This document shows, in pieces, positions 38,640 to 60,090 of a DNA stretch of 64,000 nt. The stretch comes from an uncultured Alphaproteobacteria bacterium (GTDB lineage Bacteria; Pseudomonadota; Alphaproteobacteria; RF32; CAG-239): positions 610-64,609 of the forward strand of contig CALXVW010000051.1 in NCBI GenBank assembly GCA_944392185.1, read 5' to 3'. The translations under genes and the position numbers were made by a program. The number at the start of each line of letters is the position of its first letter. The first letter of the stretch is position 1. Below the pieces are notes generated by a model. The model did no database searches, was not told where the DNA came from, and worked only from the letters and a program-made list of their open reading frames with translations.

Positions 38640-38730
38640 GGATAGGTGGCCGAGTGGTCGAAGGCGCACGATTGGAAATCGTGTGTACCCCTAAAGGGTA
38701 CCGAGGGTTCGAATCCCTCCCTATCCGCCA
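38640..38730 (+). tRNA. tRNA-Ser (anticodon GGA), CCA encoded
   Basis: Manual fold: acceptor GGATAGG/CCTATCC, D-arm, anticodon stem CACGA/TCGTG with loop TTGGAAA, long variable arm GTACCC-CTAAA-GGGTAC, T-arm GAGGG-TTCGAAT-CCCTC, discriminator G, CCA. Confidence 0.9.
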
Positions 38731-38767
38731 TTTATTTAAAAAGACGCTTGAAAAATAGCGTCTTTTT

Positions 38768-39784
38768 TTGCATCCTGCGGAATTGCGGGCTTTGCTGGCT
38801 GTTGACTTTGATAAATTGACTATGGTAAGCTCATTTAAAATCAAAAAACGCAAAATTTCCGGCAGTTACATACATTGCCGATTTTTGCAGAGTCAATGTG
38901 TTGGAGATATTATGGTTGATAAGATTGACGGTATAGATGTATTAAAAAATTTTTTGGAACAAAGATATTCTCAATATTCATTCAAAGATCTAGAAAAACA
39001 AGATGATCCAAGTATCCAAACTTGTATCAAAGAGGCAATTGATATTTTAGGAATTTGGTTACCTGTAGAGTTATATAAGTATTTGCCTATTATTTCCCCT
39101 TTTGTTAAACGGGATAATAGTTGTCGTCCTTTAAAGAAAAATCAAATAGATATGTGGGGATCACCTGATGAAGAAGGATATTTTCGTGATGACAATAGTA
39201 TTGTAAAAGGGTATCCTAGAAGTTTATTAATTAATAGTACCTTTCCATCATATGCAGGTAAAAAGATTGGAAAAGGTTTTGTGACAGCTCATTGTTGGAT
39301 GTGTAAAAACAATAATTATAATCCTATGGTGAATAGTTTTGTTCCTAATTTAGTGTGGCTTCCTAAGCCACTAGCTGTTCTTACAGATGTAGAAGGTAGT
39401 TTTGCTCAGCAGTATGTACAGTTTTTATCATATAATATATATGTAAAAGTACATGTAAATAGAGTGTTATCAAAAACAATTAAGGAATGTTGGAGTTTAT
39501 TACCGAAGCCATATTTGTCTCTTCCTAGGAAGAAAGTTGTTGTTAACTTTTTTAAATATAAGCCAAGAATGCAAAAAAGTAGAATTTCAATAATAAAAAA
39601 TGTTCAAAAAGCACTTGAACTGTGCATAGCAGGAGAAAAACTTTCTAAAAAAGTTATCAGTAAAAGATACACTGATGGGTTACCTAATGTTTCTAAAGAG
39701 CATCTAATTCGCTTGAATATAGAGCTTAAAAATTACTTAAAGACTGTTGAAGAAGCTTCTTCTCTTGCTCCTGAAAAAGCGTAG
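38768..39784 (+). CDS. Hypothetical protein, first gene of tRNA-Ser-adjacent island
   Basis: 338-aa ORF (the true start may be the internal MVDKIDG). Cys/His-containing segment HCWMCKNNNY. No family recognised. Confidence 0.3.
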   Translation: MHPAELRALLAVDFDKLTMVSSFKIKKRKISGSYIHCRFLQSQCVGDIMVDKIDGIDVLKNFLEQRYSQYSFKDLEKQDDPSIQTCIKEAIDILGIWLPVELYKYLPIISPFVKRDNSCRPLKKNQIDMWGSPDEEGYFRDDNSIVKGYPRSLLINSTFPSYAGKKIGKGFVTAHCWMCKNNNYNPMVNSFVPNLVWLPKPLAVLTDVEGSFAQQYVQFLSYNIYVKVHVNRVLSKTIKECWSLLPKPYLSLPRKKVVVNFFKYKPRMQKSRISIIKNVQKALELCIAGEKLSKKVISKRYTDGLPNVSKEHLIRLNIELKNYLKTVEEASSLAPEKA

Positions 39785-42007: not shown

Positions 42008-43339
42008 ATGAATGAAAAACTTTTGGTTAATTATGTGGCTATTAACTCAATTTTTGATTATAAGCTTAATCCCAAAACTCACGAAGAAAAGCAGATACAG
42101 CAAATTGCCAGATCTATTGAGCGTTTTGGATTTAATAATCCTATTCTGATTGATGAAAAATCGGAGGTAATTGCTGGTCATGGTCGTTTAGCTGCTGCTA
42201 GACTTTTAAAATTGGATGACGTGCCGGTAATCTGTTTGTCGCATCTCAGCGAGGTAGAAAAGCGAGCTTACCGTATTGCGGATAATAGGTTATCGGAAAA
42301 TGGTCAATGGAATACGGATTTATTGAAGCTGGAATTTTCGGAAATTGAAAAGTTGGCTTTGAACCTTGAAGATGAACTGGATTTGGATATTACCGGATTT
42401 GATTTTAAGGAGATAGATGTTCTTCTGGCTGAAGATAAGCCCAGTGTAAAGGCAGATCAAAAGCTTAATTCTATTCCGTATGTATCGGAAAATGAAATAG
42501 TCAGCCAATATGGAGATATCTGGCTGCTGGGAAAGCATAAAATTATTTGTGGAAACTCGCTGAAAGAGGAAACATATCAGCATTTATTTGAAAACATTAA
42601 GGCCAATATGGTTTTTACTGATCCGCCATTTAATGTGAAAATTCAAGGACATGTTTGCGGCTCTGGTCAAACAAAACATAAAGAGTTTGCTTTTGCCTCT
42701 GGCGAGATGAATGTGGCTGAATTTATTTCGTTTTTGAAAACATCAATGGCGAATATAGCAAAACATTCTGTTGAAAATTCCGTTCATTATATTTGCATGG
42801 ATTGGCGACATATATCCGAGCTGCTTTCCGCTTCTCAAGATATCTACGCTAAAATGCTGAATATGGTGGTTTGGTGTAAGAAAAACGGCGGTATGGGTAG
42901 TTTTTACCGCTCACAGCACGAATTGATTTGCATCTTTCAGAACGGCAAAGGTTCTCATGTTAATAATGTGGAGTTAGGCAAGCATGGCCGCTATCGAACA
43001 AATGTCTGGCATTATGCCGGTGTTAACAGTTTTGGCTCCGAACAGAAAAATCTTAAAATGCATCCGACGGTCAAACCGGTAGAATTAGTCCGCGATGCGA
43101 TTTTGGACGCATCTAAACGGGGCGATATTGTGCTGGATGCGTTTCTCGGCAGCGGAACAACGCTGATTGCGGCTGAAAAGGCCGGACGTGTTTGTTACGG
43201 AATCGAGTATGAGCCATTGTATATTGATACGATTATTCGCCGATATTATGAATTAACCGGAAATTGGGCTATTCATCAAAGTTCGCAAAAATCATATGAG
43301 CAATTATTGCAAGAAAAATTGGAGAAAATCAATGAGTGA
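42008..43339 (+). CDS. ParB-like nuclease domain fused to N6-adenine/N4-cytosine DNA methyltransferase (phage-type)
   Basis: N-terminal ParB-like IAGHGRLAAARLL. C-terminal MTase motifs DPPFN (motif IV) and FLGSGTT (motif I). Confidence 0.7.
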   Translation: MNEKLLVNYVAINSIFDYKLNPKTHEEKQIQQIARSIERFGFNNPILIDEKSEVIAGHGRLAAARLLKLDDVPVICLSHLSEVEKRAYRIADNRLSENGQWNTDLLKLEFSEIEKLALNLEDELDLDITGFDFKEIDVLLAEDKPSVKADQKLNSIPYVSENEIVSQYGDIWLLGKHKIICGNSLKEETYQHLFENIKANMVFTDPPFNVKIQGHVCGSGQTKHKEFAFASGEMNVAEFISFLKTSMANIAKHSVENSVHYICMDWRHISELLSASQDIYAKMLNMVVWCKKNGGMGSFYRSQHELICIFQNGKGSHVNNVELGKHGRYRTNVWHYAGVNSFGSEQKNLKMHPTVKPVELVRDAILDASKRGDIVLDAFLGSGTTLIAAEKAGRVCYGIEYEPLYIDTIIRRYYELTGNWAIHQSSQKSYEQLLQEKLEKINE

Positions 43340-43703
43340 AAGCGGCTATAAAAATCCGCCCAAACATTCGCGATTTCAGAAGGGGTGTTCGGGTAATCCG
43401 GCTGGAAGGCCGAAAGGAAGCAAAAATACGCTCAAACTTCTGGATGCAGTTTTGGAACAGAAAATCAAAATTCAGCAAGAGGGTAAGACCGTCAGCATTA
43501 CCAAAAAGCAGGCAATGCTGATGCAGCTGGTCAATGCTGCGGTAAAAGGCGAAATCAAGGCCATTGCGGCACTTTTCCCATACATGATGCAGCTGGACAT
43601 GAAAGAAGAGCAATCCTTAGAAACAAGCAAATTGTCTCTAAAAGATGAGGAAATTTTACAACAGTTTTTAGAACAAAATAAACAGGAGAATAGAAATGAC
43701 TGA
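43332..43703 (+). CDS. Phage terminase small subunit-like protein
   Basis: MSESGYKNPPKHSRFQKGCSGNPAGRPKGSKN (the GNPxGRPKGS motif is common in phage TerS-like/DUF5681 proteins). Directly upstream of and overlapping the TerL gene. Confidence 0.45.
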   Translation: MSESGYKNPPKHSRFQKGCSGNPAGRPKGSKNTLKLLDAVLEQKIKIQQEGKTVSITKKQAMLMQLVNAAVKGEIKAIAALFPYMMQLDMKEEQSLETSKLSLKDEEILQQFLEQNKQENRND

Positions 43704-45240
43704 TAAAAATTTGGTGAAGAATGCAGTCTTCCGTCAAAGTTTCTCAACCTTTGTACAGAAGTGTTTTTATGAATTAAACCCCTCGGAAAAATTTATAAAT
43801 GGCATGTATATAGATTTATTATGCGATCAAATCCAAAGTATGATTGAAGGTGAGAATCAGAAGTTGATAATCAATCTTCCCCCAAGATATTTAAAATCTG
43901 TCATATGTTCTATAGCTTTGCCTGCATTTATTCTAGGGCATAACCCGTCGGCTAAAATTATGTGCATCAGCTATGGGGAGGATCTGGCTTCCAAATTAGC
44001 TACGGATTGTAGAACCATTATGGAAACAGACTGGTATAAAGAACTTTTCTTTCAGACAAGAATTCGGGGAGATAGGAGATCTAGTATGGATTTTGAAACA
44101 ACCAAGCACGGCGGACGGTTTGCTGTGACAATTTCAGGAGGAGTAACCGGCCGCGGCGCTGATTGGATTATTATAGACGATCCGTTGAAACCGGTTGAGG
44201 CTTTTTCTGATATACAGAGAGAAAAAGTTAATGAACTCTATGGAAATACCGTTAACTCTAGGCTTAATGATAAAAATACAGGGAGAATACTTGTGGTTAT
44301 GCAGCGTTTGCATGCTCATGATTTATCTGGTTTTCTGTTTGAGAACGATCCTGATTTTAAGTCTATCGTCTTGCCGTTGATAGCCGTAAAAGATGAAGAA
44401 TGGCAAATAAAAAATCATATTACCGGAAAAATAGTGATATATAAGCGAAAAAAAGGTGAGCTGCTGCATCCGGAACGCGAAGGCGAAAAAGTTGTAAACA
44501 GTTATCGCAATTCGATGAGCCCTTTTGTATTTTCTGCGCAGTATCAGCAGAATCCAATGCCTATCGGCAGCGGAATGATTAAACAGGAATGGATAACGAC
44601 CTATCAAGAACTGCCAAAGTTGAGTAAAATTATTTTATCATGGGATACAGCGTCTAAAACTACAGAAACGAATGCTTACTCTGCATGTGTGGTGATTGGA
44701 GTTGGAAAAGATCAAAAGTATTACCTGCTTGAAGTGTTTCGCGGCAGACTTGATTTTCCTAGTTTGACAAGAAAGGTTAAGGAACTGTCTGATAAATATG
44801 AAGGTAAAATGTCAGGCAAGATAATAACTTTGGTTGAAAATGCATCTTCCGGGATTTCACTTTGTCAAACTTTGAAAGGTAAGATAACAAATTTAATACC
44901 TGTTTCATGTAAAAGTTCTAAGGAACAGCGTTTTGATATTGTCGCATTAAAAACCGAACAAGGTGAGTTATTGTTTCCAGGACAATATGAACCTTGGTTC
45001 AAAAGTTTTGAAGATGAGTTCTTAACTTTTCCGAGATCTTTATTTAAAGATCAATGTGATGCTTTGAGTCAGGCAATAGGGTATTTTGAAGAGCATAAAC
45101 ATTCTTTACGGCAAGCGGCTGTTGTTGCCATTCCATCGCCGCCCGTGAAAACTGTGTACACTGGAATTATTGGGACATCCAATACAAACAGCAATATTTC
45201 AGCTCGTCCAACAATATTTTTTAATTATAGGCGTTTTTAG
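43696..45240 (+). CDS. Phage terminase large subunit
   Basis: Deviant Walker A region INLPPRYLKSV (the LPPRHGKS-type terminase motif). C-terminal nuclease-domain acidic residues (SWDTASK...). 514 aa. Confidence 0.65.
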   Translation: MTDKNLVKNAVFRQSFSTFVQKCFYELNPSEKFINGMYIDLLCDQIQSMIEGENQKLIINLPPRYLKSVICSIALPAFILGHNPSAKIMCISYGEDLASKLATDCRTIMETDWYKELFFQTRIRGDRRSSMDFETTKHGGRFAVTISGGVTGRGADWIIIDDPLKPVEAFSDIQREKVNELYGNTVNSRLNDKNTGRILVVMQRLHAHDLSGFLFENDPDFKSIVLPLIAVKDEEWQIKNHITGKIVIYKRKKGELLHPEREGEKVVNSYRNSMSPFVFSAQYQQNPMPIGSGMIKQEWITTYQELPKLSKIILSWDTASKTTETNAYSACVVIGVGKDQKYYLLEVFRGRLDFPSLTRKVKELSDKYEGKMSGKIITLVENASSGISLCQTLKGKITNLIPVSCKSSKEQRFDIVALKTEQGELLFPGQYEPWFKSFEDEFLTFPRSLFKDQCDALSQAIGYFEEHKHSLRQAAVVAIPSPPVKTVYTGIIGTSNTNSNISARPTIFFNYRRF

Positions 45241-45316: not shown

Positions 45317-46411
45317 ATGAAAAAACGAAACGGGGTAAAAGTAATGTTTTTGAATAAATGGATGTTAGGTCTTAAAAGGGTAGAACAGAAAATTTTGAAG
45401 AGTTATGATAAAAAAAATTGTTCGGAACATATTTCTGCAATAATCCAATCTTATTTAGAAAGGTTGGATTATAAATATCAAAATCCTGATAAAATTATAG
45501 GACTTTCTACAGAAATAAAGACTCTAGACAACAAATTACAAGGTCTAAGAGGTGGAGAAATTATTTTACTCGCCTCTCGTCCCTGTATGGGCAAAACATC
45601 TTTTGCAATGAATCTTTCTTATAAAGTAGCACAATCATTTTTGAAAGAGGATAACATGAACATGGATAATAAATGTGTTCTGTATTTTAGTTCAGAAGCT
45701 CCGTCTTTTACTTTGTGTCAGCTCCAGCGGATTATCGCTGAAAAAATTACCGGTACAAATTGGTTTGATTTACATACATACAAATATGGAAGCAAATCTT
45801 ATGAAGAATTTGCAACGGTAGCAAATATTGGTAAAGAACTAGGAAAATTACCTCTTTATATATGTGATGATTCCAGCCTGTCTTTGGATTCCATAAAAAA
45901 TAAAATAAAAAAAATTAGCGGCTGTTCAAAAATCGGTTTTATTGTTATTGATGAGTTTTTATTATTTTCTTTCAAAAACTCATTACACCCCCAACTGTCC
46001 TATATCACCTTGCAAGGATTAAAGGATATAGCCCAAAAGCTTAATGTTCCCATTTTAGTTCTAGGCAAGTTAAGCAGAAATCTTGAAAGACGCTCCGATA
46101 AACGCCCGCTATTATCTGATGTTGATTCGGCAATTAAACTATCCCCTTATTGTGATAAAATTTTATTTTTGTACCGCGAATCTTACTATTTGACAATGAA
46201 ATACCCAGAAAAAAAGTCAAATGAAACAAAAAACCATTTTGACCATCGAATGAAACGTTGGGAAAAGAAGTATCGTAAAACGGAAAATGAATGTGAGATT
46301 ATAATAGCGAAAAATAAACAAGCATTTACGGGAACGGTAAAAATTTTTTGTAACATGGTAGATGGTATTTTTGACGATATAGAATCATCGGAGGATGATA
46401 TTCCGTTTTAG
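45317..46411 (+). CDS. DnaB-like replicative helicase C-terminal (RecA-fold) domain protein
   Basis: GLRGGEIILLASRPCMGKTSFAMNL Walker A in the DnaB C-domain context. Walker B-like FIVIDEF. Lacks the DnaB N-terminal domain. Confidence 0.55.
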   Translation: MKKRNGVKVMFLNKWMLGLKRVEQKILKSYDKKNCSEHISAIIQSYLERLDYKYQNPDKIIGLSTEIKTLDNKLQGLRGGEIILLASRPCMGKTSFAMNLSYKVAQSFLKEDNMNMDNKCVLYFSSEAPSFTLCQLQRIIAEKITGTNWFDLHTYKYGSKSYEEFATVANIGKELGKLPLYICDDSSLSLDSIKNKIKKISGCSKIGFIVIDEFLLFSFKNSLHPQLSYITLQGLKDIAQKLNVPILVLGKLSRNLERRSDKRPLLSDVDSAIKLSPYCDKILFLYRESYYLTMKYPEKKSNETKNHFDHRMKRWEKKYRKTENECEIIIAKNKQAFTGTVKIFCNMVDGIFDDIESSEDDIPF

Positions 46412-46959: not shown

Positions 46960-47072
46960 GAATCTTATATAACATCTGCCAGAATTTACCTTACAATTTT
47001 CCTTTCTTGCAGGTGATGTACCACGGAAGCCCCAATATAAAATTGGGGCTTCACTTATTTCAGGAGAGAGTA

Positions 47073-47396
47073 ATGACAAAAAAGATAATAAAAGAACTTA
47101 ATGACAATTTTAGAAAAAGCTTTTTAGGTGGACGTGTAATGATAACTCAAAAAGTTCAAATGCTGTCTGCCGAAGCCCAAAGAGAATTATTTGACCGTGT
47201 AAAACAGTTTAATGACTTTACAAAAGAAAACGACCCTTACGGAGAACATGATTTCGGAAGTATCAAATTCCAAAACGACATTTATTTTTGGAAGATTGAT
47301 TATTACGACATTAATTTTTTATATCACAGTCCAGACCCGAGCAACACTTCTATTACAAATAGGGTTTTAACAATCATGCACGCAGATGAATATTAA
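47073..47396 (+). CDS. Hypothetical small protein with conserved NDPYGEHDFG...FWKIDYYD motif
   Basis: ATG preceded by a CAGGAGAGAG RBS (the ORF track starts further upstream at a weaker start). The motif resembles a small protein family common on plasmids and phage islands; exact family uncertain. Confidence 0.35.
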   Translation: MTKKIIKELNDNFRKSFLGGRVMITQKVQMLSAEAQRELFDRVKQFNDFTKENDPYGEHDFGSIKFQNDIYFWKIDYYDINFLYHSPDPSNTSITNRVLTIMHADEY

Positions 47397-49737: not shown

Positions 49738-49747
49738 AACCGTATTC

Positions 49748-50413
49748 CTACCTTTCCGCGGGTTTTACTTTTATCATTAAAAGTTTAAAATTATTTAAAT
49801 ACTCGCACCAATGACATTCATATTCGTTTGTTGACACTTTTTTCTTATATTTATCATTTTTTGGTGAAAAAACTTTTGGCCCTGCCTCAATATTTTTTGC
49901 AAGGTAAAATTTTTCATCAATAGTTTCTTTCTTTTCTCCCTTTTCTCTTTCCCAATAAACCTTGTCATTAGTCAGAAAAAGGCAAAAATTGTTCATCTTT
50001 TTTGATGTTATGTTACGGATTCCCTCTAATCTTTCTATATCCTGAACAAACAATAATCTTCCAAAATCTTGGGCGGAGTGATTTTTTAATGTCAAATTAA
50101 TACCGTACCGTGTAATTTCTTTTGCTGTAGTCTTATATTTTAATTCGATAAACGAGATTTCATCAGGCGTATCAACATAAATATCTATATATTTTATACG
50201 AGTACCCTCTTTCTCACGATAAGGATATTCCAAAATGATTTTTGCCGTTTCGCCTAAAATTTCTTTTAGTTTCCACGCCAAGCTAAACTGAAAATCAGCC
50301 TCAAGCGTAAATATTGCATTTTCCGCTTTTAATCTTTTAATTGCTTCACTTATTGCAGTTGAAATGACATCCGCCATAATTACCTCCTTTATTTTTTTGC
50401 AGAACATAATCAA
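49748..50413 (-). CDS. PD-(D/E)xK-like nuclease-fold protein (221 aa), co-operonic with WYL regulator
   Basis: YIDIYVDTPDEISFIELKYK gives an Asp strand followed by ExK about 12 residues later. The gene stops 10 bp before the WYL gene start. Confidence 0.35.
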   Translation of the reverse strand: MIMFCKKIKEVIMADVISTAISEAIKRLKAENAIFTLEADFQFSLAWKLKEILGETAKIILEYPYREKEGTRIKYIDIYVDTPDEISFIELKYKTTAKEITRYGINLTLKNHSAQDFGRLLFVQDIERLEGIRNITSKKMNNFCLFLTNDKVYWEREKGEKKETIDEKFYLAKNIEAGPKVFSPKNDKYKKKVSTNEYECHWCEYLNNFKLLMIKVKPAER

Positions 50414-52266: not shown

Positions 52267-52980
52267 TTATTGATTATATTTTTCTTCTATTTCTGTAGAT
52301 AGCTGCCTAATTACATTATTTAATAATTCGGTTCCATCGACCTCTGTTGCAAGAGACGCAATTTCATTTATTAATTCATCATAAAAGCTGGGATCCCCGG
52401 TTAAATGGTGCCAAAAATCTTTGCCGACATATACTGGATGCGAACGATCAATTGTCCGATACATTTGTGATAAATCATCACTTTTTCCATAAAAAACACC
52501 AACAATACAATCAATATCAGCATTAAATTCGCGTAAACCATTGGTGCGGGCTATACGACGAATAGATTCAAAATGATTTTTAATGGTTGTAATATCATCT
52601 TTATTAATGGTATTTGGGCCAGCTTTTATTTGGCAATATTTACGTCGGCCATCAAGTTGATCGACAAATTCAATGTCTATTCCAGGAGTTGTGGATGCAA
52701 AACCGCTAAGTACATCTTTACAGAAGGCTTGCATTTGTGTACCGAACGTAGTGTTTATTGAAGTACCTAAAACCCTAGGATATACTAAAGCCTTTGCTAT
52801 GCTAGAAGCGTCACAATTACCAAAAGCAAAGTTTGCTAGATATTTTTCTAAAAAAGGATTCGGTTGAAAAGCCGATAATTTACCTAATTTTTCTGTATTC
52901 CTTTTATGATTATCAACAATTTTCTCTCTAAAAAAATCCTTTGCTTTTGCTAGTATTTCTCTTTTTTCTGCCTCAGTCAT
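52267..52980 (-). CDS. Candidate Type II restriction endonuclease paired with the C5-MTase
   Basis: Immediately upstream of and co-directional with the MTase. IDIEFVD...KYCQIK gives a degenerate PD-(D/E)xK-like arrangement. Assignment by context. Confidence 0.35.
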   Translation of the reverse strand: MTEAEKREILAKAKDFFREKIVDNHKRNTEKLGKLSAFQPNPFLEKYLANFAFGNCDASSIAKALVYPRVLGTSINTTFGTQMQAFCKDVLSGFASTTPGIDIEFVDQLDGRRKYCQIKAGPNTINKDDITTIKNHFESIRRIARTNGLREFNADIDCIVGVFYGKSDDLSQMYRTIDRSHPVYVGKDFWHHLTGDPSFYDELINEIASLATEVDGTELLNNVIRQLSTEIEEKYNQ

Positions 52981-53132: not shown

Positions 53133-54137
53133 ATGAATGTAAATCAAATTAAAGGTGGTAAGGTTAGAGCAAAAAAATTATCATCAGAACAACGTAGAGA
53201 GATAGCAATAAAAGCGGCACAATCAAGATGGCAAAAAAGTGCTACTAATGAAAGCAATTTTCCTAAGGCTCTATATACTGGAGTGCTTCCTATTGGCGAT
53301 GTAGAAATAGATTGTGCTGTATTAGATGATGGTCGGAGAGTTTTAACCGCAACATCTATATTTAATGCTTTTGATCGAACTAGAAAAGGTATGAATTCAA
53401 GGCTCGAAATTGAAGGAACAAAAATACCTCCATTTTTGGCCGCAAAAAACTTAGAAAAATATATAACTTCAGAAGTTATTGAGAAGGCCACCCCAATCAC
53501 ATATATTGATGGGTCTATAGAAAAAACAGGTTATTTGGCCAGTATATTACCTAAAATGTGTGAAGTTTATCTCAATGCACGTAGAGACAACCAATTAACA
53601 GCTTCACAAAAGAAACTTGCAGAGAAATCTGAAATTCTATTAATGGCTTTTGCTCAAGTTGGTATAGATGCATTAATTGACGAAGCAACAGGTTACCAAT
53701 ATGACAGAAAACACGATGCATTAAGGATATTGTTAGCAAAATATATTGAAGAAGGTTTACAAAAATGGATTAAAACATTTCCGGATGCTTTTTTTGCTGA
53801 ACTAGATCGTCTTTATAATAACGGAATCACTATTTCTCGTAAAAGGCCGATGTATTATGGAAACTTTATAAATAAATATGTGTATGAGCCAATAGAACAC
53901 GGATATATAAAAGAAGAACTTAATAAGAAGAATATAAAAAAAGATGGAAAAAGAATTGCTCAGTTTCATAGGTGGTTAACTGAAGAGGGAAGAAATATCC
54001 TTATTTTACAGATTGGTAGGGTTTCAGCTCTTATGGAGATTAGTAAAAATATAGAGGCATTTAAAAGAAAAGTTGAAAAACAAAAGGAAATCTCTGTAGC
54101 TCCGTATCTATTTGAAGAGATGAATGAAATTGAATAA
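53133..54137 (+). CDS. P63C-domain protein (phage-type) immediately upstream of Gabija
   Basis: N-terminal GGKVRAKKLSSEQRREIAIKAAQSRWQK and central IDEATGYQYDRKHDALRILLAKYI...WIKTFPDAFF match the P63C-domain pattern. Stops 31 bp before gajA. Confidence 0.45.
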   Translation: MNVNQIKGGKVRAKKLSSEQRREIAIKAAQSRWQKSATNESNFPKALYTGVLPIGDVEIDCAVLDDGRRVLTATSIFNAFDRTRKGMNSRLEIEGTKIPPFLAAKNLEKYITSEVIEKATPITYIDGSIEKTGYLASILPKMCEVYLNARRDNQLTASQKKLAEKSEILLMAFAQVGIDALIDEATGYQYDRKHDALRILLAKYIEEGLQKWIKTFPDAFFAELDRLYNNGITISRKRPMYYGNFINKYVYEPIEHGYIKEELNKKNIKKDGKRIAQFHRWLTEEGRNILILQIGRVSALMEISKNIEAFKRKVEKQKEISVAPYLFEEMNEIE

Positions 54138-54167: not shown

Positions 54168-55868
54168 ATGAAAATATCAAAATTGACTATTGAAAATTTT
54201 AGAAATTTGTCAGGAATATCAACGATTTTCTCTGATGAAATTTGTTCAATTGTTGGTGAAAACAATATTGGAAAATCAAATTTATTATATGCTATTACAT
54301 CTGTATTAACGGGTAAGAAATTTGATGAAATAGATTTTTATGATAAAAGTAAGCCACTGGTTATTTCTTTTACATTAAAACTCTCGGATGAAGAATTAGG
54401 TGCTTTTGATGATTATTTTGATCCAGACGACCATCATTTAGTTAATATTATCGCAGAGCAAGCAACTCCTGATGATTATATTAACTATAGACACAAAGAA
54501 AGTGGAAACTCTATTTCACGAGCAGATATAATTAATAATTTAAATGTGATTGTATATGATTCTTTAAGAAATCCTAAAACAGAAATAACTTTTGAAAAGA
54601 GTAAAGGTGTAGGAGCATTTTTAAATTATATTATAAGAAGGTATTTATCTCAAAATGCTTCTAAATTATATCTTGTAGAAGAAAATATAAACTCATTAAA
54701 TGATTATATTATAGGGATTCTTGAAAAACTTACGTGTTTTAATAAGTTTAATATAAAATCAGATGTATCTAATAATGCAGATGAATTATTACCCAAAATT
54801 TTTGATCTATACGAAGCAGGGAACATTCCTTTAGAGTGCTCAGGATATGGAGTACAGTTTAATATACTTATTTTATTATCTATTTTAGAAAAAATTTTAA
54901 GATATTCTGAAAAAAAAGGATTGCCTGATAATAAAACATTTTCCTGTATTATTACTTTTGATGAACCTGAGATACATCTAAGTCCTTTTTTACAAAGAAG
55001 CATATTGTACAATATCAAAAAGATTGCAAAAGGAGAAGATGATGATTTTAATGCAATTATAAAAGAACTATTTGATATTGATCATTTTTCTGCTCAAATA
55101 TTGCTGACAACCCATTCCAGAGAAATTGTCGAAAATAACTATAAACAAATCATTCGTTTATATAAAGATGAATCCAAAGTAAAAGCTGTATGTGGTGCCG
55201 ATATTTCAATAACATCGGAAGAAAAACATTGGTATAAAGCACTAACCTACGTTAAAGAGGCTTTGTTTGCAAAAAAAGTTATATTAGTGGAAGGTGATAG
55301 TGAACAGGGCGCCTTGTATAGCTTTGCAAAAACATTAAAAATCAATTTGGATGATTATGGTGTTGCTATCGTAAAGGCATCTGGCGCTAATAGTATTTTT
55401 CCATTAGCTTATTTGTTTGAGAAATTTAATATACAACCTATACTTATTTTTGATAAAGATAAATATGATGAATATCAAAGAGGTAATAAAGATCAAGATA
55501 TTACACATTTTAAAGATTATATGTTTGTTACGCAAACTAAATGTTTTGATAGTGAAATAGTTTTTAATTTATATAATGATGACGGAATTGAAGTTCTAAA
55601 GGTTATTCAGAATGATTATAGGTGTAATATAATTCAAAGAAGTTCTGTTGCTAAACTTAATAAGCAGTACGCACTAAATCCTCCATTAGAAGAACAAGAT
55701 TACCAATTCGCTTCATACCAATATCCAGATGAAATTTTAAAATATATGTATGTTTCATTTTTTCAAAATAATAAAACTGTTGTATTTGGAGAGTGTATTG
55801 GCGAGCGTTGTCCCGAAGTGTGTATTCCAGAATGTTACAAAAACGCTATTCTTAAGGCAGTCGAATAA
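54168..55868 (+). CDS. gajA: Gabija GajA (OLD-family ATPase + Toprim nuclease)
   Basis: N-terminal ISKLTIENFRNLSGIS...IVGENNIGKSNLLYAI (AAA_15/OLD ABC-type ATPase). C-terminal Toprim VILVEGDSEQ. 566 aa, overlapping the start of a UvrD-like gene. Confidence 0.75.
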   Translation: MKISKLTIENFRNLSGISTIFSDEICSIVGENNIGKSNLLYAITSVLTGKKFDEIDFYDKSKPLVISFTLKLSDEELGAFDDYFDPDDHHLVNIIAEQATPDDYINYRHKESGNSISRADIINNLNVIVYDSLRNPKTEITFEKSKGVGAFLNYIIRRYLSQNASKLYLVEENINSLNDYIIGILEKLTCFNKFNIKSDVSNNADELLPKIFDLYEAGNIPLECSGYGVQFNILILLSILEKILRYSEKKGLPDNKTFSCIITFDEPEIHLSPFLQRSILYNIKKIAKGEDDDFNAIIKELFDIDHFSAQILLTTHSREIVENNYKQIIRLYKDESKVKAVCGADISITSEEKHWYKALTYVKEALFAKKVILVEGDSEQGALYSFAKTLKINLDDYGVAIVKASGANSIFPLAYLFEKFNIQPILIFDKDKYDEYQRGNKDQDITHFKDYMFVTQTKCFDSEIVFNLYNDDGIEVLKVIQNDYRCNIIQRSSVAKLNKQYALNPPLEEQDYQFASYQYPDEILKYMYVSFFQNNKTVVFGECIGERCPEVCIPECYKNAILKAVE

Positions 55869-57661
55869 TGTCTTGTATTGAAGATAAGTTAAAAGAAATG
55901 CATCAAAATGATAGGGAGCAACTTGATATCATATTTTCTCAAGAAAAACGAATCCTTGTTGAAGCATCAGCAGGGTGCGGTAAAACAAAGACATTAGTTA
56001 GTAAAATAGCTTATTTGCTTAGTACAAATAAGATTCCTGTAAATAAAAAAATTTTGATATTAACATTTGGTGTAAATGCTGCTTACAAAATAAAAAAAGA
56101 AGTTTTTGAAAATGTACCTAAGTTAATAAGAAATATTCACGATTTAGAAGATAAAATCATAGTTACTAATTTTCATGGCTTTTCGCGTAGAATTCTAAGT
56201 CGATATGGGTATTTATTAAATGATAATCTTTTGCAATTAAACCAATTTTCTATAGATGATGATGCAGAAACCGATGAATTAACACAGTTAGACATAGGGC
56301 TACTTATGTCAGAAGCTGATTTTTTAAGTACTTATTCTCAATGTATCAAAGATAATAATTATGGTTACTTGAATGAAAATTTTGAGAAGTATATTGCTTT
56401 AATAAAGTATAAGTTTCTGCCAAATAATCATATTACATATAATGCCATATTATTACTTACATTGAAACTTTTAAGTCAATATAGTGGAATATTACAGTTT
56501 TATCAAAAACTATTTCCTTATATAATAATTGATGAATTTCAAGATACTGGTAGTATTAGCTGGGCAATACTTAGACAACTGATAACAGAAAAAACTTCTC
56601 TTCTGTTTATGGGAGATCCTTTACAAAGAATTTATGGTTTTATAGGTGCTGTTCCAGGTTTAATGGAAAAAGCATGTGCAAAATATTCTATGAATATATT
56701 TAAAATAACAACAAATTATCGGTTTAAAGATAATCCGAATATGCTGCAATTAGATAAAAACATTAGAGAAAATAGTAAAGGCAATTCTATAATTATCACT
56801 CAAAATGCGGTTGTTCCTTGTAATTTGTATTATACACAGCACGATGAGGCAGTCTATATAAAATCAAAATTAATTTATTTATTAAATCATTATCAAGGAT
56901 GCAAAATAGCAATTTTAATTCAATCCCGAACAAAAAATTTAAATTATATCTTGGATTATTTAGCTAGTAACTCAATTGATTATTTTAATGGATTATTCAA
57001 CGAAGAAAGTTATTCTTATAAAAAATTTCATAAAGATGTATTGGAAATATTTATAGATAGTTATAACAAAAGTAAATTAAAAACTATTCGCAAATCTTTT
57101 TTATCTCAAATTTACGAAAAAGTTTCTGCTTTTTATGATGCTCACATGACAGATGAAATATCATCTTTAATAAAATTGTTAAAAGTGTTTTTTTCTGATA
57201 TCACAAATAAGATTTATCTTAATAATGAAGAAAAATATCAGCTAATAATTGATGTATTATCAAATAATTCCTTAAAACAATCTATGGAACTATTGGAAGA
57301 AAAAATTGTAGTTACAACGGTGCATGGTGCAAAAGGATTGGAATGGGATTATATTTTACTTCCTGATATGGAGCGAAATAGTTTTCCTAATTGGCAATCT
57401 TTATGTAGTGTATGTCCGGAAATAGCAAACCATGATGATTGTAATAGATGTTTAAACAAAAGTAGCAATATGGATCAAAAGTTTTATTGTCGCTACATTG
57501 ATATTCTTAGCCTTTTTTATGTGGCGGTTACAAGAGCTAGAAAACAAGTATTTTTTTCTGCTAGTTTACAAACGTTGAATAATCTAAAATATCCAAGAAC
57601 AAAAATTAGCTGTTTATTATCTCTTCCTGGTATTGACTTAAAAGAAGATAAAGAAATCTGA
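55868..57661 (+). CDS. gajB: Gabija GajB (UvrD-like helicase)
   Basis: Motif I ASAGCGKTKT, motif II IIDEFQDTG, motif V-like VTTVHGAKGLEWDYILL. The start overlaps the gajA stop (taATG). Confidence 0.75.
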   Translation: MSCIEDKLKEMHQNDREQLDIIFSQEKRILVEASAGCGKTKTLVSKIAYLLSTNKIPVNKKILILTFGVNAAYKIKKEVFENVPKLIRNIHDLEDKIIVTNFHGFSRRILSRYGYLLNDNLLQLNQFSIDDDAETDELTQLDIGLLMSEADFLSTYSQCIKDNNYGYLNENFEKYIALIKYKFLPNNHITYNAILLLTLKLLSQYSGILQFYQKLFPYIIIDEFQDTGSISWAILRQLITEKTSLLFMGDPLQRIYGFIGAVPGLMEKACAKYSMNIFKITTNYRFKDNPNMLQLDKNIRENSKGNSIIITQNAVVPCNLYYTQHDEAVYIKSKLIYLLNHYQGCKIAILIQSRTKNLNYILDYLASNSIDYFNGLFNEESYSYKKFHKDVLEIFIDSYNKSKLKTIRKSFLSQIYEKVSAFYDAHMTDEISSLIKLLKVFFSDITNKIYLNNEEKYQLIIDVLSNNSLKQSMELLEEKIVVTTVHGAKGLEWDYILLPDMERNSFPNWQSLCSVCPEIANHDDCNRCLNKSSNMDQKFYCRYIDILSLFYVAVTRARKQVFFSASLQTLNNLKYPRTKISCLLSLPGIDLKEDKEI

Positions 57662-57687: not shown

Positions 57688-59448
57688 TTATTCAAAAGCT
57701 TTTAATAGCCTTTGTGTAAGGATTTTTTTGCGTTCTTCAATAAATTTGCGAAAGTCTTTAATATCGACAAATTTAGAAGGGATTAGCTGTTCTTTACAAT
57801 TTATATTGTTTTTTTCTATCCATTCTTCTAAAGATTTTTTATTTTTTGCTTCGTTGTCATTGCCATAAAGTAATTGGAGATTTAGAATGCTATTCCAGTT
57901 GTTTTTATCCTGATAGAATTTGAGGTCATCCTCTGACAGATTTAGTTTCTTAAGTTCTTTTTTGCTAAAGCAATATTCGGGGTGAAGGTGATCTTTGTGC
58001 TTTGTTGCTCTATAATCTGAACCATCATATAGTAAAGATAAAATTGGAAAGGCATATCTAGATTCCTTTTGTTCAAACAATAAGCTCTCTATAAATTCAT
58101 TATCAACTTTTAATGATTTTCTTTTTCCTTCTAGATTCTCTTTTATTTCTTCTAGAGGAAAGTTACGAGATTTAGATCTTTGTATTACATCACGAATCTC
58201 TTTTAAAATTGAATCAGATTGGCCTCCAAATATCTTTTTAAGAAATACAATATTTAGCCATTTTAAAATAATAAGTCTATCTTGTTTATACGCCACCTTA
58301 TCACAAAATTGTTTGGTTTTTCCAGAGTGATTTAAATAATAAACAATTAAGGCAATTGCATTGTATGATGTAATTGTATTATCATTATGGCCGTAATTTT
58401 TTAATAATGTAAAAGCTTCTTTAATTGTAGCCTTTAACCCTCCTTCAGAATCCCATTCTTTTTCAAATTGAAATAAACATTCAGAAGATAAATTATTAAC
58501 TTTAAATTTTATATCTTTACTATAAGCGAGGAGAGCGCATCGAACAATGAATTCTTTCGAAAAATTATAAAATCCCATGTTTTTTATTTCTTTTTCTAAA
58601 TTATTAAATTCTGTTCTTGCATCAACGGAAGTCCAAGTTGAAATAATTGTAGATATTAGCAGATCTGAAAAAGATAATTTTTCTCCTCCGCTATTTGTTC
58701 TTATAAAGATTTTTAGTGCTTTATCATAATCTTCTGTTTCTTCAAGATAATAGTTGATTAAAGGTTTGTTATAAATAATGTCATATAACTTTGCTATGGT
58801 ATCATGAGCAAATTTGTTGTTGGGAAACTGTTCTTCTAATGTTTTTATAAGGCGTGATACATCTTTGTATTTTTCTGTTAAAATGTCTCCTACTTTAAAG
58901 AAACGTGAGGAGCCACCTAAGTTATTAAACTCTTGTTCTGTTAAAAAGTAGAAGCCATATTCTCTTTCATCATCATATTCAGCAATATTTTTATGTTCTT
59001 CTTCTGTATATTCTTTATATTTTTTACAGATATCTAAATATAATTTTCGTTCTGGATAGTTATCTAAATTATCCCAGTGGCCGTAGGGCCTTTTATATGC
59101 ATAAGATCCTTTTAGCCCAAGATATAACGCTGTTAGTCTTTGTTGCCCATCCAGTACAGCACAAAAGTCATTTACTCCATTTGTATTAAAAGAATCAGCA
59201 GTTTCGTGGTAATATTCAATATATTTAGTTAGAAATTGGTAATATTTATACTGATTTTTATTCTCAGCATTATCTACCTTCCAGAAAAGGAATGAGTTTA
59301 TTGGAAAATTACACATTAGAGAATCAAATAATAATTCTATATCATCCGTACTCCATACAAATTCTCTTTGGATTGCAGGTAGTAATAGTTCTCTCTTATC
59401 TATTCTTTCTAGGGCTTTTTTAATTGTTAAAGGCGTTTGAAAACTCAT
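57688..59448 (-). CDS. GmrSD-family type IV restriction endonuclease (DUF262 + DUF1524)
   Basis: N-terminal DUF262 hallmark LDGQQRLTAL and QREFVW. C-terminal His-Me finger-like HKDHLHPEY. Confidence 0.7.
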   Translation of the reverse strand: MSFQTPLTIKKALERIDKRELLLPAIQREFVWSTDDIELLFDSLMCNFPINSFLFWKVDNAENKNQYKYYQFLTKYIEYYHETADSFNTNGVNDFCAVLDGQQRLTALYLGLKGSYAYKRPYGHWDNLDNYPERKLYLDICKKYKEYTEEEHKNIAEYDDEREYGFYFLTEQEFNNLGGSSRFFKVGDILTEKYKDVSRLIKTLEEQFPNNKFAHDTIAKLYDIIYNKPLINYYLEETEDYDKALKIFIRTNSGGEKLSFSDLLISTIISTWTSVDARTEFNNLEKEIKNMGFYNFSKEFIVRCALLAYSKDIKFKVNNLSSECLFQFEKEWDSEGGLKATIKEAFTLLKNYGHNDNTITSYNAIALIVYYLNHSGKTKQFCDKVAYKQDRLIILKWLNIVFLKKIFGGQSDSILKEIRDVIQRSKSRNFPLEEIKENLEGKRKSLKVDNEFIESLLFEQKESRYAFPILSLLYDGSDYRATKHKDHLHPEYCFSKKELKKLNLSEDDLKFYQDKNNWNSILNLQLLYGNDNEAKNKKSLEEWIEKNNINCKEQLIPSKFVDIKDFRKFIEERKKILTQRLLKAFE

Positions 59449-59711
59449 TTTTGTTTCCTAATTTTTTAGATAATTAATAATATATATTGTTACTATTGTA
59501 GTTTGCAAAAAGCAATCACTAATTGTAAATTTTCCCTGTATTTAATTTTAAATTCCCTGATAATTTTGGGAAGGATGTTGGGATAAGCTAAGCAATTCAA
59601 GGTAAACATGATGGTGCGGAGGAGAAAAACGTGGTGAAATTCCCTGTAGATTCCCTGTTATTTGGCTTGAGCAATGTGAAGCTTTAGTATGCTTAATACC
59701 GTTGAGATTTA

Positions 59712-60090
59712 CTACTCCGCCATTTACAAGAAAGCCCTGCCTTGTGCAGGGTTTTGTTGTAAATACTGAGAGATTGGAGGGATTTGAACCCTCGGAGAAG
59801 AGGGGGCGACTACCAGCGAAAGGCAAGCGGAAGCGTGCCGGTGAGCCTTGGCGAATGAGCGCCCGTGCAACTCAAGCGTCAGCGCAGAGTAATCCCTCCC
59901 TATCCGCCATTTACAAGAAAGCCCTGCCTTGTGCAGGGTTTTGTTGTAAATACAAAAGGATTGGTGGGATTTGAACCCTCGGAGAAGAGGGTTCGACTAC
60001 CAGCGAAAGGCGAGCGAGAGCGCGCCGGTGAGCCTTGGCGAATGAGCGCCCGTGCAACTCAAGCGTCAGCGCAGAGTAATCCCTCCCTAT
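59712..60090. repeat. Two tandem copies of a 187-bp unit, each ending in a copy of the tRNA-Ser 3' end (candidate attR sites). Each unit also contains a terminator-like hairpin and an inverted tRNA T-arm-like fragment
   Basis: ccgccatttacaagaaagccctgccttgtgcagggttttgttgtaaata recurs at 59717 and 59904. aatccctccctatccgcca (identical to the tRNA-Ser 3' end at 38712-38730) is at 59891-59909. aatccctccctat is at 60078-60090. ggagggatttgaaccctc is the reverse complement of a T-arm. Confidence 0.75.

Follow-up and report, generated by a model that had tools for sequence, protein, structure and literature searches.

Gene content of the island at tRNA-Ser(GGA)

The window, i.e. the whole 64-kb stretch of DNA that was analyzed, carries an island of 20,992 bp (38735-59726) at a tRNA-Ser(GGA) gene. 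The island had a lower GC content (0.33) than its flanks (0.41-0.42). Its features are listed in Table 1; related loci are here referred to by L numbers. Outside the island, the window also holds a VirB4-like gene.

Table 1. Features of the island and of the adjoining host sequence (LSR, large serine recombinase)
Feature	Position	Strand	Basis and remarks
tRNA-Ser(GGA), integration target	38640..38730	+	ARAGORN; Rfam tRNA 62 bits; intact after integration
attL copy of core TCCGCCATTTA	38724..38734	+	sequence
Island-borne hairpin and T-run (AAAAAGACGCT...AGCGTCTTTTTTT)	38738..38769	+	kept directly after CCA in >20 related islands
TTGACT...TTGACTATGGTAAGCT motif	38802..38831	+	kept in close clade
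Leader hairpin CGGCAGTTACATACATTGCCG and T-run	38860..38887	+	terminator-like call; 5' of variable left cargo slot
290-aa protein, left cargo slot (attL to LSR)	38912..39784	+	no Pfam, PADLOC or PHROG match
LSR, 549 aa	39726..41375	-	Resolvase and Recombinase domains, C-terminal HTH
DUF2924 protein, 150 aa	41368..41820	-	Pfam 2.9e-18; stop overlaps LSR start by 8 nt
ParB-N fused to N6/N4 DNA methyltransferase	42008..43339	+	Pfam; PHROG 498, 408 bits; family-wide
DUF5681 protein	43296..43703	+	Pfam 2.4e-23; PHROG entry of unknown function
TerL	43696..45240	+	PHROG 38, 317 bits; Terminase_6C
DnaB-like helicase, C-terminal ATPase domain	45317..46411	+	Pfam DnaB_C 3.1e-46; PHROG 19
Three ORFs: 163 aa, DUF3768 (47007-47396), 283 aa	46468..48257	+	only DUF3768 assigned
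Cas4/DUF2779-like remnant, last 48 codons	48356..48499	+	tblastn 98% identity over 48 aa
WYL/WCX regulator (48796-49737) and 221-aa ORF (49748-50413)	48796..50413	-	Pfam and PADLOC WYL matches (regulator)
Type II R-M: MerR-HTH C5 cytosine methylase	50920..52221	-	Pfam 2.3e-86; PADLOC MTase_II 384 bits
Type II R-M: EcoO109I-family endonuclease	52267..52980	-	Pfam 2.4e-35
P63C-domain protein	53133..54137	+	Pfam 5.5e-18; no PADLOC match
Gabija GajA	54168..55868	+	PADLOC 526 bits, full length; Pfam AAA_15 and OLD-like TOPRIM
Gabija GajB	55868..57661	+	PADLOC 643 bits, full length; Pfam UvrD
GmrSD-type (HEC-05) putative type IV restriction enzyme	57688..59448	-	PADLOC 620 bits; Pfam GmrSD_N 2.5e-29
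Non-coding right end (P arm)	59449..59715	+	kept in aligned L008, L084, L015; terminus ...AATACCGTTGAGATTTACTAC
attR copy of core TCCGCCATTTA	59716..59726	+	sequence
Two tandem 187-nt RtT-like host units, outside island	59716..60089	+	TRF and repeat finder
Second, unoccupied attB-like site, unit 1/unit 2 junction	59891..59930	+	matches L002 attB from AATCC, at least 79 nt

The LSR matched the Pfam families Resolvase (1.9e-40) and Recombinase (2.3e-14), its catalytic domain matched that of TP901-1 (3.6e-23), and the catalytic motifs YVRKS13T and DRLSR were intact. No Cys was present after residue 279, and among 18 members of the LSR family no match to Zn_ribbon_recom was obtained at E<=1. The zinc-ribbon/coiled-coil domain controls directionality in the characterised serine integrases; its absence here may indicate a differing mechanism. 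A DUF2924 gene accompanied the LSR gene in nearly every locus in which the upstream region was present. The AF2 model of the DUF2924 protein reached a pLDDT of 82, and a search for its structural neighbours gave none that was significant. Pfam-type domain annotation of the ORFs revealed no tyrosine integrase in the island.

The genes for the ParB-methyltransferase fusion, DUF5681 and TerL recurred over LSR identities from 41% to 98%. The DUF5681 gene was always located immediately 5' of the TerL gene in the loci compared, and from this position only we regard it as a putative small terminase (TerS-like) gene. TerL comprises both the ATPase and the nuclease half and shared 30-33% identity with the TerL proteins of cultured phages. 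The three ORFs next to the helicase gene were 92-99% identical in L003 and L016. The core module was 92-99% identical between hosts with a flanking nitroreductase of only 42% identity. Capsid, portal and tail families gave no match among the island ORFs of at least 60 aa (Pfam, PHROG), and the neighbourhood of TerL was likewise devoid of virion genes in L003, L011, L014 and L054. Neither a relaxase, an oriT or a coupling protein nor AlpA, Pri-Rep or P4 hallmark genes were seen in the island.

In the left cargo slot other genes were present in L003, L007 and L014. The Cas4/DUF2779-like gene was intact in L003, and the WYL/WCX regulator together with the 221-aa ORF was common to L003 and L016. 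The defence genes in the two variable slots probably benefit the host.

This composition is largely in agreement with an earlier note made from the sequence alone. The note had proposed an insertion of about 21 kb, bounded by repeats and adjoining tRNA-Ser(GGA), and an island-free counterpart (L002) indeed exists. The large serine, not tyrosine, recombinase with its DUF2924 partner was recovered by Pfam domains, and the ParB-methyltransferase fusion, TerL, DnaB-like helicase and dense defence cargo by Pfam, PHROG and PADLOC; the lack of capsid, portal and tail genes was confirmed for the ORF sizes given above. The TerS-like gene of the note corresponds to the DUF5681 gene.

Several non-coding features were found at the ends. 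The hairpin directly after the CCA is absent from the empty site L002 and probably replaces the native terminator of the tRNA. The TTGACT...TTGACTATGGTAAGCT motif is a candidate that may represent either a promoter with an extended -10 element or a site of protein binding in the P' arm; a simple promoter scan made no call there. In the wider family, a GACTnnGGTA-like motif recurred within the island at a distance of 60-100 nt from attL, and the leader hairpin was kept in L003, L007, L008 and L014. The right end contained four TTCCCTG motifs (59532, 59553, 59640 and 59651), and all three matches to ATTCCCTGW in the 64-kb window fell within a single 107-nt stretch of this region.

Borders of the island and flanking repeats

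Both borders share an 11-nt core consisting of the last 7 nt of tRNA-Ser(GGA) and 4 additional nt. The conserved island end stops at 59715, immediately 5' of the first 187-nt unit. Its terminal 21-mer abutted nCCGCCA in 7 further loci and in L109, and comparison of attL and attR in L008, L084, L085 and L105/L109 narrowed the common core to CCGCCA(T). Since the ends at the second locus (L105/L109) and in seven related islands read ...TTTACTAC followed by nCCGCCA, the junction repeat is only 7-11 nt long. This is what serine-recombinase chemistry predicts, and the anomaly seen in the earlier note, a serine recombinase combined with long tRNA repeats, therefore no longer exists. The crossover probably occurred within CCGCCA, corresponding to tRNA positions 71-76.

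The longer repeats were assigned to the host sequence. Exactly two copies of the 19-mer AATCCCTCCCTATCCGCCA exist, at 38712 and 59891 (0 expected by chance), the exact repeat in fact being 23 nt long (38712-38734 and 59891-59913), and a 13-nt truncated copy of the tRNA end is located at 60078-60090. The note had given these positions correctly but had taken the copies as island borders, whereas both copies, of 19 and 13 nt, form the termini of two 187-nt units. The two units are 94% identical, and each has TCCGCCATTTA at its start and AATCCCTCCCTA at its end. Global alignment of the Rfam RtT model to them gave 25 bits, which is below the gathering threshold of 45 bits; conversely, a model made from the window units scored 25-28 bits on exactly the four rtT repeats of E. 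coli. The note was to be abandoned if the repeats proved to be unrelated dispersed elements. This is half the case, since the copies belong to an RtT-like host repeat which is also present at island-free sites, among them tRNA-Ser(CGA), tRNA-Pro and tRNA-Val loci.

The search for an empty site in related genomes, as suggested in the note, led to L002. Here, the order is nitroreductase, tRNA-Ser, one 187-nt unit and tag. The tRNA was 100% and the left flank about 100% identical to the window, and the unit was nearest to unit 2 (185/187 versus 176/187 for unit 1). One could therefore also place the island at 38731-59909, bounded by a 19-23-nt duplication of the tRNA end, with unit 1 (59716-59902) being mobile and a long tDNA being part of attP. 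The exact 23-nt repeats agree with this, and L002, the only island-free site found here, is on its own equally compatible with a deletion between these repeats, which would leave a single unit. However, in L109/L110 the same cargo end, belonging to a 99.8% identical element, stops at ...TTTACTAC followed by TCCGCCA, beyond which lies host DNA that is unrelated and lacks unit 1. Additionally, in 7 loci the conserved end of the element is followed by differing host DNA, a unit is found on the tRNA side of the island in L014, units exist at the island-free loci mentioned above, and the island carries no tyrosine integrase. We consider these wider borders extremely unlikely and would rather set the right one at 59726.

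With this border, the junction between units 1 and 2 lies outside the island. In other loci such unit-borne copies of the tRNA end were occupied: the island of L014 sits after one, and L084 has two islands with one unit between them. Each unit junction recreates an attB that can be used.

tRNA targets and mobility

The note had further proposed to check whether the recombinase clusters with tRNA-targeting serine integrases. In about 50 of 57 loci a tRNA gene was located 0.2-3.5 kb past the LSR stop, on the opposite strand and with its 3' end facing the LSR. These 57 are the loci with enough downstream DNA, from gut Alphaproteobacteria and Elusimicrobia and with LSR identities of 42-98%; no tRNA was found beyond the LSR in 7 of the approximately 57. 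By a rough calculation, such adjacency would be expected by chance in about 4%. The target tRNA tracked LSR phylogeny, and LSRs 96-98% identical to that of the window were sited at Ser(GGA) or Ser(CGA). The LSR thus belongs to a large family with tRNA-end targets, which apparently has not been described before.

The same island was found at tRNA-Ser(CGA) in other metagenomes (L105/L106), 99.78% identical over 11.1 kb. Its end after the CCA is identical to that in the window; this copy has the same end nucleotides with a core of only 7 nt. On the basis of these sequence comparisons, the island is real and mobile. Junctions of the attP type in L015 and L017 were located in the chromosome and may represent scars or stem from tandem copies; an excised circle or attP junction of the window element was not seen.

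The earlier note had left the choice between a satellite-like element and a decayed prophage. The latter would be a WO-like temperate phage which was stripped of its virion genes and has since been retained, immobile, as a defence island. In favour of this, the LSR-DUF2924 pair and the ParB-methylase are also present in Wolbachia phage WO, TerL persists with no portal or capsid gene, and the Cas4-like gene is cut down to 48 codons. However, copies 99.8-99.9% identical occupy two different tRNA loci in several metagenomes, the island is present or absent between otherwise near-identical flanks, all core ORFs are intact, and dozens of species from two phyla have the same layout without capsid genes. 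Decay is thus very unlikely. The lack of capsid genes in all loci examined would fit a satellite-like lifestyle.

Proposed model of integration

The borders and the gene content are established, as are the empty site, the occurrence of the element at two tRNA-Ser loci and the adjacency to tRNA genes throughout the family. We assign a probability of roughly 75% to the following reading: 38735-59726 is an integrative element, put at the 3' end of tRNA-Ser(GGA) by its own LSR and with a probably satellite-like lifestyle. The responsible enzyme would be the LSR, expressed in an operon with DUF2924 and aided by it, and would insert the element at the very 3' end of the tRNA gene. The putative attP reads ...AATACCGTTGAGATTTACTAC-TCCGCCA-TTTATTTAAAAAGACGC... 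and would have only 7-11 nt in common with attB, which would consist of tRNA nucleotides 70-76 and the start of the host sequence downstream. Strand exchange within CCGCCA would rebuild the tRNA, and the element would supply it with a new terminator. Since the tRNA 3' end is present once more at the end of the RtT-like unit downstream, attB would be repeated at the unit junctions; these sites could serve for landing or be left empty as at 59891. After excision, the ParB-methylase/DUF5681/TerL/DnaB-like module presumably serves for replication and for packaging in the capsids of a helper phage.

It is possible, though we think it the less probable case, that the LSR island is mobile but no phage satellite. 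It would then spread by conjugative mobilisation, a gene transfer agent or flanking homologous recombination, and TerL, DUF5681 and the ParB-methylase would have another use, e.g. in nuclease-based defence or self-protection. Neither a helper phage nor a gene for capsid remodelling was identified, and only 1 match was obtained among the 2.9 million contigs of IMG/VR. Between two tRNA hot spots, the region 60100-61030 shared 75-93% identity with L002 while both sides were about 100% identical, which suggests import via flanking homologous recombination. The VirB4-like gene of the window may be added here. Against this, the island has no relaxase, oriT or coupling protein, and a full-length TerL with its upstream partner is kept family-wide, which is difficult to account for if they play no part in packaging.

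Comparison with known systems

Like the classical serine integrases (phiC31, Bxb1, TP901-1, A118), the LSR combines an N-terminal resolvase domain, which provides the Ser nucleophile, with a Recombinase domain behind it. An enzyme acting alone, a defined site and a short attP/attB identity (7-11 nt here) are further common traits. In contrast, an unfamiliar stretch of about 190 aa, together with a C-terminal HTH, stands in for the zinc-ribbon/coiled-coil here, and the LSR is co-encoded with DUF2924 and targets a tRNA CCA end.

Phage WO has the full set of head, tail and baseplate modules of a complete phage, whereas the window element has no virion genes; WO is not known to integrate at tRNA genes. 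The Wolbachia WO recombinases were the only phage LSRs aligning along the entire length (28-29% identity, 94-96% coverage). In Wolbachia wStri a DUF2924 gene is located immediately upstream of a recombinase gene (PMC10299305).

The ssrA islands of Dehalococcoides carry the CcrB-like serine recombinase DsiB of about 540 aa, which adjoins attL at the 3' part of the tmRNA; their integration module also contains a ParB-domain protein and a DNA-modification (Mom) homologue, and the islands, which have variable cargo, can occur in tandem (PMC3146451). A serine recombinase at a tRNA-like gene, the ParB-domain protein, the DNA-modification gene, the tandem arrangement and the variable cargo are thus shared with the window. 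The ssrA islands differ by a second small serine recombinase (DsiA) instead of DUF2924, insertion into the T-loop, a direct repeat of 20 bp, the lack of a terminase and a cargo of reductive dehalogenases (PMC3146451).

Islands and satellites with tyrosine integrases (Islander-type, PICI, P4, tycheposons) likewise insert at tRNA 3' ends and restore the gene, form arrays at tRNAs and carry defence or adaptive cargo, some with a terminase for capsid piracy. Among tycheposon-like elements, 27/937 had a large serine recombinase (bioRxiv 10.1101/2020.12.28.424599). However, the enzyme family is another one, and the junction repeat is 7-11 nt here versus 17 nt or more; a 17-nt repeat was found at an unrelated insertion (L095). 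Furthermore, the window element has TerL without capsid genes and no AlpA, Pri-Rep or P4 hallmark.

PLE of Vibrio cholerae is a phage satellite integrated by an LSR into a reiterated host repeat with several alternative attB copies. By description, it resembles the window element in its LSR and repeated attB. PLE lacks a terminase, and its targets are VCR repeats instead of tRNA ends.

The 187-nt units have their counterpart in the 178-bp rtT/tyrT repeats of E. coli (RF00391). Both are tandem and directly 3' of a tRNA gene, with an inverted T-arm copy, an end equal to the last 19 nt of the tRNA and common internal motifs. In contrast to rtT/tyrT, units of the window type accompany tRNA-Ser, tRNA-Pro and tRNA-Val genes of Alphaproteobacteria, the terminus agreeing with the tRNA in each case, and here they form part of the attB of a recombinase.

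The tRNA-Ser(GGA) locus and the 187-nt units

The positions of the features discussed here are collected in the table. The earlier note had reported a tRNA-Ser(GGA), two 19-nt copies of its 3' end and a further 13-nt copy, and all of them were found in place by ARAGORN, Rfam and a repeat search. The 19-mer AATCCCTCCCTATCCGCCA occurs exactly twice, none being expected from shuffled sequences, and the exact repeat is longer, at 23 nt. The reading of these copies as the ends of the island did not hold. Those on the right are the termini of two tandem units, the 19-nt copy at 59891 being the junction of unit 1 and unit 2 and the 13-nt copy the end of unit 2.

Features of the window and their positions
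Feature	Position	Remarks
VirB4/TrbE-like ATPase	9679-12108	left of the island
Secretin and T2SS-E ATPase	21339-27271	left of the island
tRNA-Ser(GGA)	38640-38730	ARAGORN and Rfam
19-mer, start of copies	38712 and 59891
Island	38735-59726	20,992 bp, counting one core copy
Large serine recombinase (LSR)	39726-41375(-)	549 aa
ParB-methylase fusion, DUF5681, TerL, DnaB-like helicase, DUF3768, WYL regulator		island; TerL matches PHROG 38 (317 bits)
Remnant of Cas4/DUF2779-like gene	48356-48499	last 48 codons, 98% identity
Match to sRNA-Xcc1	50472-50556(-)	32.5 bits, gathering score 53, E 0.04
C5-methylase/EcoO109I-type R-M pair, P63C protein		island
Gabija GajA, GajB	abutting at 55868	PADLOC, 526 and 643 bits
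GmrSD/HEC-05		island; PADLOC, 620 bits
Two tandem 187-nt units	59716-60089	94% mutual identity
13-nt tRNA-end copy	60078
Tract divergent from the island-free site	60100-61030	75-93% nt identity

Each unit starts with TCCGCCATTTA (the 3'-terminal 7 nt of the tRNA and then TTTA) and ends with AATCCCTCCCTA. Inside, each unit has the terminator hairpin of the tRNA as well as a copy of its T-arm in inverted orientation. RNAalifold predicted 26 pairs for the units, five of them with compensatory changes. Rfam aligned the units end to end with RtT RNA (RF00391). The scores were 25.0 and 17.4 bits, which are below the Rfam gathering score of 45. RtT RNA comprises the 178-bp repeats behind E. coli tyrT. 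As a reciprocal test a covariance model (R1) was built from 12 units. In E. coli K-12 this model matched only the four rtT repeats of the tyrT-tyrV locus (25-28 bits, E ~1e-7), the next match scoring 7 bits, so that bona fide rtT repeats were detected reciprocally.

A metagenome scan found the same type of unit behind tRNA-Ser(GGA), tRNA-Ser(CGA), tRNA-Pro(GGG) and tRNA-Val(TAC) (loci L083-L101). At each of these loci the tRNA present there is matched by the inverted T-arm, by a GAAC-N4-loop-N4-GTTC hairpin and by the 3' end of the unit, and at Ser, Pro and Val loci a tandem unit lies directly 3' of the tRNA and ends in the 3' end of that tRNA. Since termini and hairpin are matched to the local tRNA at several tRNA loci, the units are a host tRNA-linked, RtT-like repeat family of gut Alphaproteobacteria and not the ends of islands. 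Among 68 LSR loci searched with model R1 no further RtT-like units were found, probably because the attR sides lie past the 10-kb flanks. A literature search on RtT and tyrT gave nothing relevant.

A chimeric RtT-like unit was present in locus L090 (5571-5900). It starts like a tRNA-Ser(CGA) unit and ends like a tRNA-Pro(GGG) unit with the Pro downstream flank. Its source is either a recombination event that joined units of two tRNA loci or a chimeric assembly.

Borders of the island

In L002, an island-free site, nitroreductase gene, tRNA, one unit and the gene tag follow one another without interruption, with a left flank that shares ~100% identity with the window. This arrangement is compatible with excision at an 11-nt core in a host with a single unit as well as with a deletion between the 23-nt repeats. 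As L002 alone fits both, other loci were needed to place the borders.

In four loci (L008, L084, L085 and L088) the right end ...AATACCGTTnnnnTTTACTAC directly abuts nCCGCCA, followed by differing host DNA, and in L014 a unit sits between the tRNA and the island. The most decisive evidence came from two pairs of loci. In L105/L106 the same island is found at tRNA-Ser(CGA), with 99.78% identity over 11.1 kb and identical sequence after the CCA. In L109/L110 the cargo end of the island stops at TTTACTAC, followed by TCCGCCA and then by unrelated DNA without unit 1. The element therefore has the borders listed in the table. That unit 1, which differs from unit 2 at 11 positions, travels with the island was ruled out by L109.

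The shared core is 11 nt long here and 7 nt at the other locus, and comparison of the junctions narrows the exchange region to CCGCCA(T). For an exchange of attP and attB with a 2-bp staggered crossover, the sequence comparison yielded only this short core identity of 7-11 nt, which is what a serine recombinase should leave. The excised form would carry the circle junction AATACCGTTGAGATTTACTACTCCGCCATTTATTTAAAAAGACGC. An intact tDNA with a displaced tDNA fragment on the other flank, as in Islander-type islands, was not found, the duplication at the true junction being limited to 7 nt of the tRNA and the 19-nt copy belonging to the host unit.

In L015 and L017 the right end ...AATACCGTTnnnnTTTACTAC abuts a second left end. 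These direct joints of right ends to a left end or its remnant (L015 2500-2570, L017 1-83) were at first read as attP. They may equally be tandem copies or scars and were not used as proof of a circle. L095 (3462-10040) has an unrelated ~6.5-kb insertion that separates tRNA-Ser(CGA) from its RtT-like unit. A 17-nt tRNA-end repeat (TCCCTATCTCTCCGCCA) borders this insertion on both sides, the classical long-repeat signature typical of the other kind of island.

Repeats as landing sites

Each unit junction restores the tRNA end together with the downstream half-site, and the copy at 59891-59930 is identical to the attB of L002 from AATCC onward. Unit-borne copies are occupied by islands in L014 and L084, the latter carrying two islands with one unit between them. 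Solo scars of ~40 nt from the left-end terminator were found after a unit in three further loci (L086, L093 and L099). As the unit junctions recreate attB and some of them are occupied, the repeats multiply the landing sites and allow tandem arrays.

Structure of the island ends

The left end comprises, in this order, an island-borne tRNA terminator, a conserved TTGAC...TGACTATGGTAAGCT motif, a leader hairpin and a variable gene slot. A standard sigma-70 promoter was considered for the TTGAC...TATGGTAAGCT motif and rejected, as the spacing is unfit and a promoter scan gave no call. A GACTnnGGTA-like motif was observed 60-100 nt inside the left end in many recombinase clades, including clades only 50-57% identical (attL regions of L030-L075), and qualifies as a candidate for a promoter element or a site of accessory binding.

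At the right end, ~260 nt of non-coding sequence are conserved and hold four TTCCCTG motifs. ATTCCCTGW has three matches in the 64-kb window, and all of them fall into 107 nt of this region. The TTCCCTG motifs may serve to bind accessory proteins, or may mark an origin or a pac site.

The recombinase and its family

The LSR carries a resolvase domain with serine nucleophile (PF00239, 1.9e-40; TP901-1 integrase catalytic domain, 3.6e-23; motifs YVRKS13T and DRLSR). The Recombinase domain PF07508 (2.3e-14, residues 180-277) was found in 18/18 family members. None of the 18 members gave a match to the zinc-ribbon domain with embedded coiled coil (PF13408) at E<=1, and the LSR has no cysteine after residue 279. 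An HTH_7 (residues 472-500) stands where the zinc ribbon would be. No island ORF matched the tyrosine integrase domain PF00589. Ahead of the C-terminal resolvase-type HTH, ~190 residues are without recognisable domain, as in all 18 relatives checked. An AF2 model of the LSR, computed from 18 aligned sequences of 80-97% identity, was unusable (mean pLDDT 46.6). The DUF2924 gene invariably comes just before the LSR gene, here with an 8-nt overlap with the LSR start.

The LSR has thousands of close homologues. A scan with one genome per species gave 72 loci, almost all from uncultured gut Alphaproteobacteria (e.g. Azospirillum sp. 51_20, Ca. Scatocola and Ca. Enterousia) and some from Elusimicrobia. 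Downstream sequence was long enough in 57 loci, and ~50 of these have a tRNA gene 0.2-3.5 kb past the LSR stop, always on the opposite strand; by a rough estimate ~4% would be expected by chance. The target tRNA follows the LSR tree. Ser(GGA) and Ser(CGA) are interleaved in a clade of 77-98% identity, Ser(TGA), Pro(TGG) and Pro(CGG) form separate clades and Arg-targeting lineages branch early, with Val and Gln in one or two loci each. Throughout the family the island sequence begins right after the CCA.

Gene content and proposed lifestyle

The serine recombinase, the defence cargo and the lack of virion genes described in the earlier note were borne out by Pfam, PADLOC and PHROG. The island has a GC content of 0.33 compared to 0.41-0.42 outside. 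The defence cargo, which is particular to this island lineage, sits in the slot that precedes the right end. In Gabija, GajA (ATPase and TOPRIM) and GajB (UvrD-like helicase) are adjacent and both full length. The type II R-M pair consists of an adjacent C5 methyltransferase (2.3e-86) and an EcoO109I family protein (2.4e-35), the PADLOC match to REase_II being weak (9.5e-06). GmrSD/HEC-05, a putative type IV restriction enzyme, combines an N-terminal DUF262 (GmrSD_N, 2.5e-29) with a full-length HEC-05 match, and Pfam gave no call for a C-terminal nuclease domain.

No virion protein was matched by any island ORF in Pfam or PHROG. The trio of ParB-methylase, DUF5681 and TerL is found repeatedly in the family. 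In L054 HsdR comes next, in place of capsid genes. In L011 and L014, where TerL is immediately upstream of DUF2924-LSR, no virion gene intervenes. The combination of TerL and an upstream DUF5681 without capsid, portal or tail match, shared with L003, L011 and L054, corresponds to a phage satellite in the PICI, cfPICI, P4 or PLE sense, an integrated element with packaging-redirection genes but no full virion set. The hallmarks of named satellite families (AlpA/Pri-Rep; Psu/Sid/Delta) were absent from the Pfam and PHROG results, and no PLE gene came up in these general searches.

A satellite-like cycle would begin with excision of the island, proceed through helicase-driven replication and end with TerL-driven packaging into the capsids of a helper. 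No helper phage was identified, and a scan of IMG/VR gave no relative with a single protein and one with the alignment. A non-viral route of transfer instead of packaging by a helper is a serious rival to this cycle. The GenBank phage record MT839917 (LSR and TerL each 78% identical) was rejected as evidence of a circular or packaged form, as it is a linear unverified 5.4-kb scaffold without terminal repeats.

The module from DnaB to WYL is 92-99% identical in L003 and L016, although the LSR is only 83-84% identical there, and the flanking nitroreductase of L016 is only 42% identical. The high identity of the module compared to the divergent LSR and flank points to its recent transfer between species. 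Only the end of a Cas4/DUF2779-like gene, which is intact (488 aa) in the related island L003, is left in the window, and this remnant marks a third small variable spot in the island core. The weak sRNA-Xcc1 match from Rfam falls into the gap that separates a 221-aa ORF from the C5 methylase.

Neighbouring DNA

Right of the units, tag and a 106-aa ORF share only 75-93% nucleotide identity with L002 (1100-2000). To the left of tRNA-Ser and in the surroundings of tRNA-Arg, by contrast, identity is ~100%, which gives the segment the look of a recombination tract with a tRNA integration hot spot at either border. Just downstream of tag and the 106-aa ORF, L002 carries a different island (2334-10122), which contains tRNA-Arg(CCT), a tyrosine integrase with Arm-DNA-binding domain, a small resolvase and an N6/N4 methylase.

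Two further tRNA-associated sequences were observed. In L105 (9545-9700) tRNA-Ser(CGA) has a partial copy of its own 5' end (GGATGAGTGGCAGAGATGGCTGGAAT) ~170 nt upstream, and the sequence after this copy is GC-rich and apparently structured. The motif GTTTCAAGC...GCTTTCAACGGACGGGATTA occurs just after tRNA-Gly(GCC) terminators (L021, L080) and in the host flank beside the island in L109 (5640-5700(-)), and may be another tRNA-linked conserved element.

The first 36,000 nt of the window contain, besides the ATPase and secretin genes listed in the table, very large ORFs of 1315 and 1514 aa without any Pfam domain. The 1514-aa ORF lies in a stretch of unusual composition at 13-14 kb (GC 0.49, AT skew -0.54).

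Significance and comparison with known systems

The most far-reaching reading is tentative, and we give it a probability of roughly 0.3. The islands would represent an undescribed, very abundant phage-satellite-like family in gut Alphaproteobacteria and Elusimicrobia. They would owe their integration to a serine recombinase that lacks the zinc ribbon, works with DUF2924 and is specialised for the tRNA CCA end, and would use RtT-type repeats as reiterated landing pads. In the literature library searched, which is incomplete, no paper was found on this LSR family, on the function of the DUF2924 partner or on RtT-like units in an attB.

If this reading is true, RtT-like elements would gain a first functional context. 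The RtT-type repeats of E. coli are linked by this analysis to the attachment site of a mobile element in a distant phylum. Here, a whole clade of serine recombinases targets tRNA genes, with at least 50 mapped loci and target tRNAs that track the enzyme phylogeny. The missing zinc ribbon and the obligatory DUF2924 partner suggest a site recognition and a control of directionality unlike those of the serine integrases used in genome engineering. With an attB that is short, occurs naturally in several copies and, as the tRNA CCA end, is highly conserved, the enzymes could be useful tools. The elements also carry complete defence systems from one species to another in the gut of humans and animals.

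Classically, tRNA genes serve tyrosine integrases as landing sites. A standard reference (PMC4383910) states that no serine integrase is known to specify them. The sole full-length alignments of the LSR were obtained with recombinases of Wolbachia phage WO (28-29% identity), and in Wolbachia wStri a DUF2924 gene is reported directly upstream of a recombinase gene, as here. A partial precedent is provided by the ssrA islands of Dehalococcoides, which have a CcrB-like serine recombinase, a 20-bp repeat and homologues of ParB and Mom. Tycheposon-type elements, 27 of 937 of which carry an LSR, are a further precedent.
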